IMG/VR virus record: IMGVR_UViG_2602041586_000004
DNA: 4,882 nt
Direction: 5' to 3' (one strand)
Origin: a virus
Taxonomy: Duplodnaviria > Heunggongvirae > Uroviricota > Caudoviricetes
Shown here: positions 1 to 4,882 of the stretch, in pieces
How positions within the stretch are numbered: position 1 is the stretch's first letter
Layout of the letters: each line of letters opens with the position of its first letter
Notes under the pieces: generated by a model
Told to the model about the DNA's origin: nothing
The model's input: the letters and a program-made list of their open reading frames with translations, nothing else
Databases searched by the model: none
Translations under genes and position numbers: made by a program

Positions 1-42
1 TATCTGAACATAAAACACTATCAATAAGTTGGAGTCATTACC
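1..42 (+). mobile_element. IS1 right terminus: last 42 bp of the element, including the insB 3' end (1..27, ...YLNIKHYQ stop) and the right inverted repeat
   Basis: Window starts with tatctgaacataaaacactatcaataagttggagtcattacc, which matches the recalled 3' end of IS1. Reverse complement of 20..42 is ggtaatgactccaacttattg, the IS1 right IR. Flanking DNA begins at 43. Confidence 0.85.
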
Positions 43-170
43 AGGCTCCTGATACAAATAGTTTTCTTCTAACAAATAAAGAATACTTATATGGTAAATT
101 TGGTATAAACGGATGGCAAAAATATGTACGATTCTTACGTGCATTCGTTGATGCGTATAAAAATTCCGAC

Positions 171-596
171 ATGATTTATACATATTTGCCTGGTGGTGAT
201 AATTGTACGCTTTCGGCAGACAATAGAATATTCATACCTATACTTGGTCTTGGGCTGATTAATGCAGTAAATGAAAGAGATGTTATAATTGTTAAGCAGT
301 GGCGAAAGCATGAGGGATATAGATATCTGCCATGCTTTGATATATTAAAAATACAGAATAAATTCTATGTAAAAATTAAATATAAAGAAGATGTTTTCTT
401 CCTCAGAAAAAACAAAGATCTTTTACAAGAACTTTCTGGGACAATAGATGTCATCGTAGGTTCTAGGTTTATAAAAGAACTGAAAGAAAGCAGGTCTTTC
501 TCTCGTGTAGAGATAAGCGAGTCAGAGTTATGGGGTATATCAAATAATCCTGTAAACCACGCTCACCAACGAAATCCAAACAAAAAGTGGTCATAA
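171..596 (+). CDS. Hypothetical protein, AT-rich; probably the 3' portion of a larger gene interrupted by IS1 (frame open from 45 to the IS1 junction)
   Basis: 141-codon ORF from ATG 171 to TAA 594..596. The same frame has no stop between 45 and 170, and the other two + frames hit stops at 50 and 70. There is no start codon between 43 and 171 and no clear Shine-Dalgarno before 171. GC is visibly much lower than in the lambda-like block. It sits where lambda carries ral, but has no resemblance to Ral or any family I recognise. Confidence 0.55.
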   Translation: MIYTYLPGGDNCTLSADNRIFIPILGLGLINAVNERDVIIVKQWRKHEGYRYLPCFDILKIQNKFYVKIKYKEDVFFLRKNKDLLQELSGTIDVIVGSRFIKELKESRSFSRVEISESELWGISNNPVNHAHQRNPNKKWS

Positions 597-619
597 CCCG
601 CTCAAGCGGGTTTCATTTT
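597..619 (+). terminator. Rho-independent terminator directly after the AT-rich ORF
   Basis: cccgc (597..601), loop tcaa, gcggg (606..610), followed by tttcatttt (611..619). The T-tract is only on the + strand. Confidence 0.6.
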
Positions 620-648
620 CACGCAAACAAAAGAATAAACACTGCACT

Positions 649-676
649 GTGTATTCATTCCAACGAGTGAATACAC
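649..676. repeat. Perfect 9-bp inverted repeat with 10-bp spacer (GTGTATTCA-N10-TGAATACAC); candidate operator or RNA hairpin
   Basis: 649..657 gtgtattca and 668..676 tgaatacac are exact reverse complements. Lies in the intergenic region between the AT-rich ORF and ea10. Confidence 0.4.
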
Positions 677-783
677 GGAGCAATGTCGCTCGTAACTAAA
701 CAGGAGCCGACTTGTTCTGATTATTGGAAATCTTCTTTGACCTCTAATGTGAGGGCGATTTTTTTCTGTGAGGATATGAACAG

Positions 784-1152
784 ATGTCAAACATCAAAAA
801 ATACATCATTGATTACGACTGGAAAGCATCAATAGAAATTGAAATCGACCATGACTTAATGACAGAGGAAAAACTTCACAAGATTAATAATTTCTGGTCA
901 GACTCTGAATACCGACTCAATAAACACGGCTCTGTATTAAATGCTGTATTAATCATGCTGGCGCAACATGCTCTGCTTATAGCAATTTCAAGCGACTTAA
1001 ATGCATATGGTGTTGTGTGTGAGTTCGACTGGAATGATGGAAATGGTCAGGAAGGATGGCCTACAATGGATGGTAGCGAAGGAATAAGAATTACCGATAT
1101 CGATACATCAGGAATATTTGATTCAGATGATATGACTATCAAAGCCGCCTGA
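784..1152 (+). CDS. ea10: Lambda Ea10-like early protein (122 aa)
   Basis: 369-bp ORF with GAGGA 9 nt upstream of ATG 784. Length and the 72-bp spacing to cIII match recalled lambda coordinates for ea10. Confidence 0.8.
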   Translation: MSNIKKYIIDYDWKASIEIEIDHDLMTEEKLHKINNFWSDSEYRLNKHGSVLNAVLIMLAQHALLIAISSDLNAYGVVCEFDWNDGNGQEGWPTMDGSEGIRITDIDTSGIFDSDDMTIKAA

Positions 1153-1177
1153 GCGCGGCGTTACCGCATACCAATAA

Positions 1178-1198
1178 CGCTTCACTCGAGGCGTTTTT
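1178..1198 (+). terminator. Possible hairpin plus T-tract (attenuator or weak terminator) between ea10 and cIII
   Basis: cgcttc (1178..1183), loop actc, gaggcg (1188..1193) with one G-U pair, then ttttt (1194..1198). Sits just upstream of the cIII Shine-Dalgarno at 1214..1218. Confidence 0.3.
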
Positions 1199-1224
1199 CG
1201 TTATGTATAAATAAGGAGCACACC

Positions 1225-1389
1225 ATGCAATATGCCATTGCAGGGTGGCCTGTTGCTGGCTGCCCTTCCGAATCTTTACTTGAACGAATCACCCGTAAAT
1301 TACGTGACGGATGGAAACGCCTTATCGACATACTTAATCAGCCAGGAGTCCCAAAAAATGGATCAAACACTTATGGCTATCCAGACTAA
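1225..1389 (+). CDS. cIII: cIII, lambda-type inhibitor of host FtsH protease (54 aa)
   Basis: Translates to [54 protein letters not shown], which matches lambda CIII as I recall it. AGGAG at 1214..1218. Not in the supplied ORF track because it is short. Confidence 0.9.
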   Translation: MQYAIAGWPVAGCPSESLLERITRKLRDGWKRLIDILNQPGVPKNGSNTYGYPD

Positions 1390-1501
1390 ATTCACTATCG
1401 CCACTTTTATTGGCGATGAAAAGATGTTTCGTGAAGCCGTCGACGCTTATAAAAAATGTATATTAATGCTGAAACTGAGATCAAGCAAAAGCATTCACTA
1501 A
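1358..1501 (+). CDS. kil: Kil, lambda host-killing / cell-division inhibitor protein (47 aa)
   Basis: Internal ATG 1358 of the 1232..1501 ORF gives [52 protein letters not shown] at 1344..1348. Overlaps the cIII 3' end by 32 bp in another frame, as in lambda. Confidence 0.85.
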
Positions 1502-1576
1502 CCCCCTTTCCTGTTTTCCTAATCAGCCTGGCATTTCGCGGGCGCTATTTTCACAGCCATTTTCAGGAGTTCAGCC

Positions 1577-1873
1577 ATGAACGCTTATTACATTCAGGAT
1601 CGTCTTGAGGCTCAGAGCTGGGCGCGTCACTACCAGCAGATCGCCCGTGAAGAGAAAGAGGCAGAACTGGCAGACGACATGGAAAAAGGCCTGCCCCAGC
1701 ACCTGTTTGAATCGCTATGCATCGATCATTTGCAACGCCACGGGGCCAGCAAAAAAGCCATTACCCGTGCGTTTGATGACGATGTTGAGTTTCAGGAGCG
1801 CATGGCAGAACACATCCGGTACATGGTTGAAACCATTGCTCACCACCAGGTTGATATTGATTCAGAGGTATAA
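1577..1873 (+). CDS. gam: Gam, RecBCD nuclease inhibitor, short form (GamS, 98 aa)
   Basis: [21 protein letters not shown]...[10 protein letters not shown] matches lambda Gam residues 41..138 from memory. AGGAG at 1565..1569, 7 nt before the ATG. Confidence 0.93.
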
Positions 1874-1878
1874 AACGG

Positions 1879-2664
1879 ATGAGTACAGCACTCGCAACGC
1901 TGGCAGGGAAGCTGGCTGAACGTGTCGGCATGGATTCTGTCGACCCACAGGAACTGATCACCACTCTTCGCCAGACGGCATTTAAAGGTGATGCCAGCGA
2001 TGCGCAGTTCATCGCATTGTTGATCGTCGCCAACCAGTACGGCCTTAATCCGTGGACGAAAGAAATTTACGCCTTCCCTGATAAGCAGAACGGCATCGTT
2101 CCGGTGGTGGGCGTTGATGGCTGGTCCCGCATCATCAATGAAAACCAGCAGTTTGATGGCATGGACTTTGAGCAGGACAATGAATCCTGTACATGCCGGA
2201 TTTACCGCAAGGACCGTAATCATCCGATCTGCGTTACCGAATGGATGGATGAATGCCGCCGCGAACCATTCAAAACTCGCGAAGGCAGAGAAATCACGGG
2301 GCCGTGGCAGTCGCATCCCAAACGGATGTTACGGCATAAAGCCATGATTCAGTGTGCCCGTCTGGCCTTCGGATTTGCTGGTATCTATGACAAGGATGAA
2401 GCCGAGCGCATTGTCGAAAATACTGCATACACTGCAGAACGTCAGCCAGAACGCGACATCACTCCGGTTAACGATGAAACCATGCAGGAGATTAACACTC
2501 TGCTGATCGCCCTGGATAAAACATGGGATGACGACTTATTGCCGCTCTGTTCCCAGATATTTCGCCGCGACATTCGCGCATCGTCAGAACTGACACAGGC
2601 CGAAGCAGTGAAAGCTCTTGGATTCCTGAAACAGAAAGCCACTGAGCAGAAGGTGGCAGCATGA
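1879..2664 (+). CDS. bet: Bet (Red-beta), single-strand annealing recombinase (261 aa)
   Basis: [38 protein letters not shown]... is essentially lambda Bet over its full length. Starts 5 bp after the gam stop, as in lambda. Confidence 0.96.
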
Positions 2665-3341
2665 TACCGGACATTATCCTGCAGCGTACCGGGATCGACG
2701 TGAGAGCTGTCGAACAGGGGGATGATGCATGGCACAAATTACGGCTCGGCGTCATCACCGCTTCAGAAGTTCACAACGTGATAGCAAAGCCCCGCTCAGG
2801 AAAGAAGTGGCCTGACATGAAAATGTCCTACTTCCACACCCTGCTGGCTGAGGTTTGCACCGGTGTGGCTCCGGAAGTTAATGCTAAGGCGCTGGCCTGG
2901 GGAAAACAGTACGAGAACGACGCCAGAACCCTGTTTGAATTCACTTCCGGCGTGAATGTTACTGAATCCCCGATCATCTATCGCGACGAAAATATGCGCA
3001 CTGCCTGCTCTCCCGATGGTTTATGCAGTGACGGCAACGGCCTTGAACTGAAATGCCCGTTTACCTCCCGGGATTTCATGAAATTCCGGCTCGGTGGTTT
3101 CGAGGCAATAAAATCGGCTTACATGGCCCAGGTGCAGTACAGCATGTGGGTGACGCGAAAAGATGCCTGGTACTTTGCCAACTATGACCCGCGCATGAAG
3201 CGTGAAGGCCTGCATTATGTCGTGATTGAGCGGAATGAAAAGTACATGGCGAGTTTTGACGAGATGGTGCCGGAGTTCATCGAAAAAATGGACGAGGCAC
3301 TGGCTGAAATTGGTTTTGTATTTGGGGAGCAATGGCGATGA
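2661..3341 (+). CDS. exo: Exo (Red-alpha), lambda 5'-3' dsDNA exonuclease (226 aa)
   Basis: [40 protein letters not shown]...GFVFGEQWR is near-identical to lambda Exo, with a few substitutions relative to my recollection. ATGA overlap with the bet stop. Confidence 0.96.
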
Positions 3342-3357
3342 CGCATCCTCACGATAA

Positions 3358-3771
3358 TATCCGGGTACCGCCTGTAAAGTGTTGCGTGATCAAATAGGCA
3401 AGCATCACAAATGGGTGTTTGTACATACCAAGGCGGCTAAGCGAGCAGATGGAACATCAACGCCTGCGGTCAGGAAGATGCGCATCGACAGCAAGACATC
3501 ATGGCTATCAGCTTGTCGTCGTGCAGGAATTGAAGATTTCCGTTTCCATGACCTCAGACACACCTGGGCAAGCTGGCTGATTCAGTCAGGCGTCCCATTA
3601 TCAGTGCTTCAGGAAATGGGCGGATGGGAGTCCATAGAAATGGTTCGTAGGTATGCTCACCTTGCGCCTAATCATTTGACAGAGCATGCGAGGAAAATAG
3701 ACGACATTTTTGGTGATAATGTCCCAAATATGTCCCACTCTGGAATTATGGAGGATATAAAGAAGGCGTAA
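3358..3771 (+). pseudogene. Tyrosine integrase, C-terminal fragment only (about 130 codons); no start codon, N-terminal and core-binding domains absent
   Basis: Frame opens at 3358 immediately after an in-frame TAA at 3355..3357. The ATG-less translation carries the H-x-x-R box ([11 protein letters not shown]) and the catalytic Tyr (VRRYAHL) but not the upstream box-I Arg region. The supplied ORF begins at GTG 3379, which is an ORF-finder artefact. It ends 15 bp before the argU 3' end, convergent with the tRNA as expected for a tRNA-targeting integrase. Confidence 0.85.
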
Positions 3772-3786
3772 CTGATTGAATTGTAA

Positions 3787-3863
3787 TGGCGCGCCCTGCA
3801 GGATTCGAACCTGCGGCCCACGACTTAGAAGGTCGTTGCTCTATCCAACTGAGCTAAGGGCGC
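3787..3863 (-). tRNA. argU: tRNA-Arg, anticodon UCU (77 nt including encoded CCA)
   Basis: Reverse complement is GCGCCCTTAGCTCAGTTGGATAGAGCAACGACCTTCTAAGTCGTGGGCCGCAGGTTCGAATCCTGCAGGGCGCGCCA. It folds as a cloverleaf: 7-bp acceptor stem, anticodon stem ACGAC/GTCGT, loop CTTCTAA with anticodon TCT, T-loop TTCGAAT. Confidence 0.92.
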
Positions 3864-3894
3864 GTTGATACCGCAATGCGGTGTAATCGCGTGA

Positions 3895-3922
3895 ATTATA
3901 CGGTCAACCCTTGCTGAGTCAA
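3895..3922 (-). promoter_or_regulatory. Sigma70 promoter for argU: TTGACT-N16-TATAAT
   Basis: On the minus strand, -35 TTGACT is at + coordinates 3917..3922 and a perfect -10 TATAAT at 3895..3900, with a 16-nt spacer. The -10 ends 31 nt upstream of the mature tRNA 5' end, consistent with a short processed leader. Confidence 0.6.
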
Positions 3923-4105
3923 TGGCTTTTGATCTGGTTGCTGAACAAGTGAACGACCGCGTCTGATTTTCTGATTTATTTCGCTATAGTGGCAAACAAA
4001 CGCACACCGCTGCGCGTCTGAATCAAGAAAACCCGTATTTTCATGTATCAAAGTACAATTTACCGCCCTAACGGAAAATTGTCCGCTCCTATGAGACTGG
4101 TAACT

Positions 4106-4738
4106 ATGAAACCAACGTCGGTGATCATTATGGATACTCATCCTATCATCAGAATGTCTATTGAAGTTCTGTTGCAAAAAAACAGTGAATTGCAGATTGT
4201 CCTGAAAACGGATGATTACCGCATAACCATCGATTATCTCCGAACCCGTCCTGTTGATTTAATCATTATGGATATAGACTTGCCCGGAACAGACGGTTTT
4301 ACCTTCCTGAAAAGGATCAAACAAATCCAGAGCACAGTGAAAGTGTTATTTTTATCATCGAAATCAGAATGCTTTTATGCTGGCAGAGCGATACAAGCTG
4401 GTGCTAACGGTTTTGTCAGTAAATGCAATGATCAGAATGATATTTTTCATGCCGTTCAGATGATCCTCTCCGGATACACGTTTTTTCCTAGCGAAACGCT
4501 TAACTATATAAAAAGCAATAAATGTAGTACGAATAGTTCAACGATCACTGTGCTATCTAATCGTGAAGTGACCATATTACGTTATCTGGTTAGCGGATTA
4601 TCTAATAAAGAAATTGCCGATAAGTTATTACTTAGCAATAAAACAGTTAGTGCGCATAAATCTAATATTTATGGCAAGCTAGGTTTGCATTCAATTGTAG
4701 AGCTTATCGACTACGCCAAATTATACGAATTAATATAA
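4106..4738 (+). CDS. fimZ: FimZ, NarL/LuxR-family response regulator of fimbrial expression (210 aa)
   Basis: From ATG 4106: MKPTSVIIMDTHPIIRMSIEVLLQKNSELQIVL... with a receiver domain (phospho-acceptor Asp in IIMDIDLPG) and a C-terminal LuxR-type HTH (SNREVTILRYLVSGLSNKEIADKL...SAHKSNIYGKLGL). fimZ lies next to argU in E. coli K-12. The in-frame ATGs at 4043 and 4091 are probably not used. Confidence 0.88.
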   Translation: MKPTSVIIMDTHPIIRMSIEVLLQKNSELQIVLKTDDYRITIDYLRTRPVDLIIMDIDLPGTDGFTFLKRIKQIQSTVKVLFLSSKSECFYAGRAIQAGANGFVSKCNDQNDIFHAVQMILSGYTFFPSETLNYIKSNKCSTNSSTITVLSNREVTILRYLVSGLSNKEIADKLLLSNKTVSAHKSNIYGKLGLHSIVELIDYAKLYELI

Positions 4739-4760
4739 TATTAATTATAATTGATCATAA

Positions 4761-4882
4761 GGTGATGCTGCCAACTTACTGATTTAGTGTATGATGGTGT
4801 TTTTGAGGTGCTCCAGTGGCTTCTGTTTCTATCAGCTGTCCGGTGATGCTGCCAACTTACTGATTTAGTGTATGATGGTGTT
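4761..4882 (+). mobile_element. IS1 left terminus: left IR and insA start (GTG 4816), truncated after 81 bp, followed by a second IS1 left end running to the window edge
   Basis: 4761..4841 matches recalled IS1 positions 1..81 (ggtgatgctgccaacttactgat...cagctgtcc). 4842..4882 restarts with the same 41 nt. The insA frame from GTG 4816 reads MASVSISCP, then runs into the second copy and stops at 4861..4863. Confidence 0.85.
4761..4882. repeat. Head-to-tail direct repeat of the IS1 left end, 81-bp unit, 1.5 copies
   Basis: 4842..4882 is identical to 4761..4801. The first unit is exactly 81 bp. Confidence 0.8.

Follow-up and report, generated by a model that had tools for sequence, protein, structure and literature searches.

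A lambdoid prophage stub, argU and fimZ between direct IS1 repeats in the Escherichia coli chromosome, probably assembled in place by separate IS1 insertions and IS1-linked deletions

Gene content of the locus

The analysed stretch of 4882 nucleotides (the window) is native E. coli chromosome from the argU-fimZ-sfm locus, in which a defective lambdoid prophage has left a stub of its left arm (ea10, cIII, kil, gam, bet, exo and int'). Gene calls follow the PGAP annotation of genome L001, whose corresponding region is near-identical (a single mismatch over 4760 bases), and Pfam matches in GCA_041228035.1 (L009), a public contig of 4.7 Mb in which all 4882 bases of the window matched at 100%. Of the IS1 copies, the window holds only the ends, and it is from this 100% match that we infer the identity of its source with L009.

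The first reading frame, of 141 aa (171..596, + strand), is what remains, at the C-terminal end, of a lambdoid gene of 289 aa located downstream of N; this gene was truncated by the left IS1 and is intact in genome L003 (3685-4554). On the same strand follow a DUF2528/Ea10-like gene (784..1152), cIII (1225..1389), kil (1358..1501), gam (Red gamma, 1577..1873), bet (Red beta, RecT family, 1879..2664) and exo (lambda exonuclease, YqaJ family, 2661..3341), all of them called by PGAP in L001 and by Pfam in L009. In this order (ea10-cIII-kil-gam-bet-exo) the genes are collinear with phage 434, to which the early region is about 98% identical, and with the prophage that is intact in L003. Comparison with L003 placed the joint of a 2208-bp deletion at 3366..3367, where L003 position 7325 is joined to 9534 with a 2-base overlap. 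This deletion took the xis region together with two thirds of int from the N-terminal side, and the C-terminal integrase fragment int' remains as a pseudogene (3367..3771, + strand).

The tyrosine integrase fragment lies 15 bp from argU (3787..3863, - strand; PGAP in L001), the tRNA-Arg(UCU) gene that serves as prophage attachment site, and, together with the collinear early-left genes, marks the remnant as that of a lambdoid prophage at the argU att site. Further downstream, fimZ (4106..4738, + strand; PGAP in L001, Pfam in L009) encodes an intact response regulator. The Red module, argU and fimZ of the original prediction were thus all confirmed by annotation. The Red genes belong to a dead prophage without immunity, replication and late regions and without the N gene; its pL promoter was presumably lost as well.

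IS1 ends and target duplications

Positions 1..42 (+ strand) form the right end of the left IS1 with its IRR (IS1 nt 727-768) and are identical in 42/42 bases to the full IS1 of L001; the complete 768-bp copy lies at 9105-9872 in L009. On the other side, 4761..4841 (+ strand) corresponds to nt 1-81 of a second copy, IS1-a, comprising IRL and the start of insA, with 81/81 bases identical to the same reference. IS1-a is cut here by a third full-length copy nested in it, IS1-b, whose nt 1-41 occupy 4842..4882 (+ strand) and form an exact 41-nt direct repeat of the IS1 left end at a spacing of 81 nt. Beyond the window, the L009 contig continues with the whole of IS1-b (nt 1-768, 14672-15439) and the remainder of IS1-a (nt 73-768, 15440-16135), all on the + strand, so that full 768-bp IS1 sequences are present at both borders.

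The 23-nt IS1 end motifs were found exactly, the right one at 20-42 and the left ones at 4761-4783 and 4842-4864, and were absent from 200 shuffles. The terminal inverted repeats are present as IRL GGTGATGCTGCCAACTTACTGAT and as IRR, the complement of which ends in ...GGAGTCATTACC. An IS1 family transposase with programmed frameshift (InsA, InsAB') was annotated by PGAP in L001, L002 and L005, with Pfam matches to Zn_ribbon_InsA, HTH_Tnp_IS1 and DDE_Tnp_IS1. The predicted right end at 1..42 and left end from 4761, both on the + strand, are therefore correct at 100% identity to IS1. A right border made of a single copy was not upheld, the break at nt 81 by the third IS1 having been overlooked.

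IS1 generates target duplications of 8 or 9 bp, and two copies of it enclose cat in Tn9 (PMC12428005). At the present locus a 9-bp duplication, which the original prediction had proposed to look for, was found for each copy, for the left one in genome L013 only. The sequence TGATCATAA (4752..4760) is repeated after IS1-a in L009 and in the complete genome AB66, and its presence on both sides of the element reads as a simple insertion; the empty target is seen at 9478-9486 in L001, within sfmF and 20 bp from its 3' end. IS1-b is likewise bordered on both sides by CAGCTGTCC (left copy 4833..4841), which is IS1 nt 73-81, as for a nested insertion in IS1-a. For the left IS1, AGGCTCCTG (43..51) is the right-hand copy. 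The left-hand one survives solely in L013, where AGGCTCC... stands directly left of IS1, so that this duplication depends on one error-prone assembly with an indel at the junction; in the other genomes it was lost to leftward deletions. The 289-aa gene is uninterrupted in L003.

Both edges of the window lie in a repeat with many copies, the kind of sequence at which short-read contigs end and chimeras arise, and at least 39-40 places in related genomes, mostly IS1, match the window. The arrangement, or at least the doubled left end of 81 nt + 41 nt, might accordingly be an assembly artefact joining unrelated IS1 borders. Such an origin is very improbable in view of the independent match of L009 over all 4882 bases and of AB66, in which the same fimZ|IS1 junction is followed by IS1 and then by IS1[73-768], the expected remainder of the nesting. 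In addition, the IS1(81)|IS1(1) junction occurs in 3 other complete genomes, 2 of them with matching duplications. Complete flanking copies, the presence of which was to be checked, are found with their full 768 bp in L009 and AB66; misassembly or copies in opposite orientation were to speak against the original prediction, and the full L009 match with copies in the same direction shows neither. The arrangement is thus taken as genuine, and the window edges are plausibly contig breaks at the IS1 repeat.

The k-mer size of a de Bruijn assembly was considered as the source of the 42-nt and 41-nt repeat overhangs and was rejected, as no single k would also let the contig cross the 81-nt IS1 stretch. 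An apparent right-hand IS1 in seven genomes (coverage of 1-4841) was also discarded: it came from attaching the 81-nt piece to the left IS1 within one record, and sfmF is intact in these genomes.

Deletions at the left IS1 and sister genomes

The left junction 42|43 with a full IS1 was found in 9 complete genomes. Among 14 genomes, 9 classes of left flank were distinguished, of which 8 map to the same strand and are collinear, with endpoints at approximately 0, 1.7, 2.6, 4.9, 6.4, 12.8, 13.0 and 13.4 kb; the remaining class (L012) abuts IS3 and has no match to any reference. These deletions were probably promoted by IS1, through transpositional adjacent deletion or IS1-by-IS1 recombination. 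Loss of target duplications by adjacent deletion or by IS-by-IS recombination has been described (PMC11708052).

Strain H2 represents the precursor state, because its left IS1 junctions are as in L009 while sfmF is intact. The sister genome AB66 is 100% identical to window positions 1046-4841 and has the same outer junctions as L009, but a further deletion of 1003 bp extends from the left IS1 into the segment, and the 81-bp repeat is lost. Of the events that the paired IS1 copies were expected to drive, deletion is thus borne out by the nested leftward series and the 1003-bp loss in AB66. Transposition of the segment is not, since every one of the IS1 copies made a 9-bp duplication of its own, the segment is collinear and no plasmid copy was found. 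Amplification of the segment is plausible.

Several forms of IS1 occupy the conserved left junction: the canonical sequence, a variant with 25 SNPs (H2), a mosaic with 9 SNPs (L009) and a form with 7 SNPs (strain 127). SNP patterns were set aside as a guide to crossover points, the variants differing only within nt 127-523 in any case. The differences among genomes show that the history has been obscured by recombination or conversion with other IS1 copies, and deletion by transposition cannot be distinguished from deletion by recombination. The mosaicism of IS1 suggests that at least some of the deletions were recombinational.

The variant with 25 SNPs could point to a causal link between the flanking copies, IS1-a having transposed locally from the left IS1 instead of arriving independently, with later sequence exchange by gene conversion. 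The 25-SNP variant of the left IS1 in H2 (nt 345-523) is the variant of IS1-a in L009 and AB66, the variant patch was found at >=99% identity in only 119 of 9245 IS1-bearing records, and the left IS1 of L009 retains 9 of the 25 SNPs as a mosaic. The variant is also carried at other loci in related strains (e.g. strain 127 and 13P484A), however, and the donor could have been elsewhere; a local origin of IS1-a is therefore a serious possibility, somewhat short of an even chance.

Repeated insertion of IS1 into IS1

Four chromosomal loci, unrelated to one another and from different E. coli genomes, share an identical IS1(81)|IS1(1) junction: the argU-fimZ-sfm locus and the yddG-porin, gspD-gspA and yadN-yadC regions. 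One of the four has a duplication of 10 bp instead of 9 bp, which indicates that at least two of the self-insertion events were independent, and the interrupted IS1 copies also differ in sequence. The exact junction was not found in GTDB species representatives, JGI metagenome contigs or plasmids. Tentatively, IS1 may prefer its own nt 73-81 as a target, inserting in the same orientation, although we consider this rather doubtful. The bending of DNA by IHF bound at the left end of IS1 would be a possible reason for such self-targeting. Self-insertion at nt 81 knocks out insA of the resident copy and creates 81-bp direct repeats able to collapse, as in AB66. The recurrence of this insertion is a minor curiosity.

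Origin of the segment between the IS1 copies

The geometry of direct IS1 repeats around 43..4760, predicted as Tn9-like, is real, and the full-length copies exist in L009 and AB66. IS1 pairs are able to mobilise the DNA between them (PMC12428005), and two copies of the same IS do enclose a cargo in L009, with the left IS1 on one side and IS1-a::IS1-b on the other. A composite transposon (IS1-Red-argU-fimZ-IS1) that had transposed to this site as a unit could be expected to have one duplication common to its outer ends. The outer-left flank reads ...ACCCGTTTC and the outer-right flank TGATCATAA..., with no common duplication, and each IS1 has its own. Moreover, genomes that lack the right IS1 have an identical, unbroken argU-fimZ-sfmF stretch, and an intact prophage found at the same att site is collinear with the stub. 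Rather than several contexts or a cargo foreign to the site, only the argU-fimZ-sfm locus was found, always collinear with IS-free genomes. A plasmid search gave no plasmid covering >=80% of the segment; lambda-like Red modules alone were matched, at <=69% coverage, and never argU and fimZ between IS1 copies. A genuine composite transposon is accordingly extremely improbable.

Very probably, the segment came to lie between direct IS1 repeats through assembly in place, by three separate IS1 insertions and several IS1-linked deletions. Direct observation covers the structure with its duplications, the series of deletions and the variants of the sister genomes; the order of the insertions and deletions would be as follows. 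IS1 would first have entered the 289-aa gene downstream of N, creating the duplication AGGCTCCTG, after which the DNA to its left would have been lost stepwise in events anchored at IS1, in the window lineage up to about 650 bp past the end of cusS. IS1-a would then have inserted in the same direction into sfmF, 20 bp inside its 3' end (duplication TGATCATAA), and IS1-b, again in the same direction, into IS1-a at nt 81 (duplication CAGCTGTCC). The outcome would be the 4.7-kb segment flanked by direct IS1 repeats in Tn9 geometry. All of this is ordinary IS-driven genome decay and known IS1 biology.

The product of a deletion of the whole segment, with the outer junctions and without the inner ones, was not present among 5426 complete genomes; the outer-right junction was found only in AB66 and the outer-left one only in H2 and AB66, and both have kept the segment. 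PMC4652775 names no E. coli tRNA gene other than argU as a reader of AGA. Loss of argU would probably be lethal, and loss of the whole segment may be selected against because it carries this gene. That the segment would be costly to lose may explain why direct IS1 repeats persist on either side of a tRNA gene that seems indispensable.

In practical terms, the results matter for annotation and assembly: repeats bound the window, which is part of a known locus and no new mobile element. The current understanding of IS1 is unchanged by it. A fixed IS junction and a graded series of deletion endpoints in different isolates make the locus a clear natural case of a prophage whittled away by IS1 expansion.

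Comparison with known systems

Like Tn9, the segment consists of a few kb of unrelated DNA between two direct IS1 copies, and deletion, amplification and transposition are possible in principle. It differs from Tn9 in having no common outer target duplication, in the native chromosomal order of its cargo, which includes argU, and in the nested double IS1 at one border. It is also confined to one locus and never found on a plasmid.

The left flank resembles the IS1-adjacent and IS-by-IS deletions described earlier (PMC11708052), in that IS1 and the junction 42|43 are kept while the other flank lies at many collinear points, and the duplication is gone in all genomes but one. The present genomes are natural isolates and not the product of a selection experiment, and we infer the mechanism for each deletion.

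A counterpart at the same position is the DLP12-type cryptic lambdoid prophage of E. coli K-12, located at argU, with fimZ, argU, intD and exoD' on the map. Both use the attachment site beside argU/fimZ, and both are defective lambdoid prophages with IS-mediated decay and a damaged int/exo region. Unlike in DLP12, gam, bet and exo are intact here and int is truncated by the 2208-bp deletion; phage 434 has an early region about 98% identical to the present one, and IS1 forms the boundary of the prophage.

Arrangement of the IS1 copies

Comparison with a full 768-bp reference IS1 (positions 4001-4768 of complete genome L001) confirmed the original prediction of an IS1 right end at window positions 1-42 and a left end from 4761, both on the + strand. 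Positions 1-42 correspond to IS1 nt 727-768 (left IS1) and 4761-4841 to IS1 nt 1-81 (IS1-a), each with 100% identity. A single IS1 had been proposed on the right; its left end at 4761 was correct, but the break at nt 81 was missed, where a second left end (IS1-b, 4842-4882, IS1 nt 1-41) directly abuts nt 81 of IS1-a. The doubled left end produces a 41-nt exact direct repeat (4761 and 4842) with a spacing of 81 nt. The 23-nt IS1 terminal repeat is present once as a right end (20-42) and twice as a left end (4761 and 4842); neither form occurred in any of 200 shuffles. The window edges lie 42 and 41 nt inside IS1 copies, which fits contig breaks at a multicopy repeat; at least 39-40 window-matching places were counted per related genome.

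A search for exact matches to the protein of the 141-aa ORF retrieved L009, a 4.7-Mb contig (JBGFED010000004.1 of GCA_041228035.1) matching window 1-4882 at 100% without gaps. On this contig cusS is followed by about 650 bp, the full left IS1 (9105-9872, + strand), the segment (9873-14590), IS1-a nt 1-81 (14591-14671), the full IS1-b (14672-15439), IS1-a nt 73-768 (15440-16135) and sfmF. Based on this layout, the predicted bracketing of 43-4760 by direct IS1 copies in the Tn9 geometry is real and involves full-length copies, and the doubled left end comes from one IS1 lying within another, not from an artefact.

The fimZ|IS1 junction was present in one of 5426 complete E. coli genomes, that of AB66 (NZ_OZ547461.1), which shows 100% identity to window 1046-4841. 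At this site (AB66 9025-10488) IS1 nt 1-768 is followed by IS1 nt 73-768, which is the nested structure minus one 81-bp repeat; the single repeat reflects either true loss or assembly collapse. In AB66 the outer-left junction is preserved and the left IS1 adjoins window position 1046 (AB66 5309/5310); a deletion of 1003 bp next to this IS1 has removed window 43-1045 from the segment. The IS1(81)|IS1(1) junction was also found at unrelated loci in three further complete genomes. The independent 100% match of L009, together with AB66, excludes a misassembly of unrelated loci as considered in the original prediction; with the three further genomes added, an assembly artefact is ruled out.

The full flanking copies, which the original prediction had proposed to examine together with their target duplications, are found in L009, and the duplications are separate for each IS1. 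IS1-a is flanked on either side by TGATCATAA, 20 bp inside the 3' end of sfmF, and the empty site ...ATTGATCATAA|ATATCGC... is present in genomes with intact sfmF. IS1-b is flanked by CAGCTGTCC (IS1 nt 73-81). The right junction of the left IS1 (42|43) is common to nine complete genomes and further assemblies; its target in the intact prophage, ...GTAGATA|AGGCTCCTG..., lies within a 289-aa gene downstream of N. In the related assembly L013, AGGCTCC... still stands directly left of this IS1, beside an indel error, and is its expected 9-bp duplication. IS1 duplications of 8 or 9 bp and the structure of Tn9 have been described (PMC12428005).

Gene content and prophage remnant

ARAGORN located tRNA-Arg(UCU) at 3787-3863 on the - strand. 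The region differs by one base from annotated complete genomes, for which PGAP calls a hypothetical 141-aa protein, DUF2528 (Ea10-like), CIII, Kil, Gam, Bet, lambda exonuclease, a partial integrase, tRNA-Arg and FimZ; precomputed Pfam matches concur (Lambda_CIII, Lambda_Kil, Gam, RecT, YqaJ, Response_reg and GerE). Phage 434 shares 98.2% identity with window 43-3367, and strain EM18-18-42 carries an intact prophage at the same site. Compared with the latter, the window lacks 2208 bp, and the two ends of this deletion meet at 3366/3367 with a 2-base overlap. The lost DNA comprised the xis region, the N-terminal two thirds of int and five small ORFs (kept in EM18-18-42, 7326-9533), and sequence immediately downstream of exo now runs into the C-terminal third of int. 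Given this gene content, the phage 434 identity and the prophage comparison, the segment comprises the early-left stub of a lambdoid prophage, defective and located at the argU attachment site, and next to it the native genes argU and fimZ.

Through IS1 insertion and deletions, window 43-1873 carries Red genes and kil without N and all upstream DNA. The native pL promoter was presumably lost as well, and any expression of these genes would have to arise by read-through out of IS1. The intact state of kil suggests that expression is low. An imperfect inverted repeat at 639-686, with 22-nt arms of 82% complementarity and a 4-nt loop, separates the truncated ORF from the ea10-like gene and may be a pL operon transcription terminator.

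Deletions and probable exchange between IS1 copies

The left-side duplication of the left IS1 is absent in all genomes other than L013. The 400 bp left of this IS1 were compared in 14 genomes and fell into nine classes. Eight are collinear and on the same strand, with endpoints at about 0, 1.7, 2.6, 4.9, 6.4, 12.8, 13.0 and 13.4 kb; the ninth (L012) adjoins IS3 and has no match to any reference. The endpoint in the window's lineage is the one at 13.0 kb, past all remaining prophage. A fixed IS junction opposite a collinear ladder of endpoints is the classic picture of IS-anchored deletion. Either transpositional adjacent deletion or recombination with another IS1 element could have removed the flank; each is recognised as a cause of absent target duplications (PMC11708052).

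Strain H2 (L019) shares the outer-left and inner-left junctions of L009, carries an intact sfmF and so represents the precursor state. Within nt 345-523, its left IS1 has about 25 variant positions, and this variant recurs as IS1-a in L009 and AB66. The left IS1 of L009 keeps only the first nine of these differences and is therefore mosaic. The variant patch was found at ≥99% identity in 119 of 9245 IS1-bearing records, and also at other loci of related strains. These data would fit an origin of IS1-a by local copying of the left IS1, with gene conversion afterwards. Across genomes, canonical, 25-SNP, 9-SNP and 7-SNP forms occupy the conserved left junction (compared: L009 9105-9872, H2 7025-7793 and L009 15440-16135, IS1-a having the 25-SNP form), which points to mosaicism by recombination or gene conversion among IS1 copies.

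Nested IS1 at other loci

Same-orientation insertion of IS1 into IS1 at exactly nt 81 was found at four unrelated chromosomal loci in different E. coli genomes: besides the window (4842-4882), at yddG-porin (ECZP248), gspD-gspA (ET734) and yadN-yadC (VL7S7), with coordinates L006 3944-5489, L007 3944-4791 and L008 3944-5488. The duplication is 10 bp in ECZP248 (TCAGCTGTCC, L006) and 9 bp in VL7S7 (L008) and L009, and the interrupted copies differ in sequence; at least two independent events therefore took place. IS1 nt 72-81 may thus be a hot spot for self-insertion. IHF binds at IS1 ends, and a link to this self-insertion is conceivable. Searches of plasmids, GTDB representatives and JGI metagenome contigs yielded no copy of the nested junction.

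In the window's lineage the locus is rich in IS elements. In related genomes, three more IS1 copies lie within or past the sfm operon, all with the orientation of the left IS1, kil contains one inverted copy, and one genome has IS26-like transposase genes flanking both sides (other IS copies near the segment: L012 17527-18294, L013 16983-17751, L016 19136-19903, L017 11303-12070, L018 4996-5700 and 13294-13998).

Comparison with composite transposons

The original prediction held that the IS1 pair can drive deletion or composite transposition. The first is borne out by the IS1-anchored deletions, while no sign of movement as a unit was seen. The predicted product of whole-segment deletion from IS1 to IS1 occurred in 0 of 5426 complete E. 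coli genomes, one plausible reason being that the segment carries argU. The argU tRNA reads AGA and AGG and argW only AGG (PMC4652775). Loss of the segment may be lethal.

A transposed Tn9-like unit is rejected on four grounds: the outer flanks (ACCCGTTTC versus TGATCATAA) have no duplication in common, each IS1 carries a separate one, the cargo keeps its native order, and the segment was found only at the argU-fimZ-sfm locus, with no plasmid carrying ≥80% of it. Nothing suggests that the segment moves as a unit. Ordinary IS1 insertions, together with deletions anchored at IS1, built the arrangement in situ within an E. coli lineage rich in IS1, and the locus represents known biology. The direct IS1 pair of the window matches Tn9 in geometry, but fails the tests for a transposed unit.
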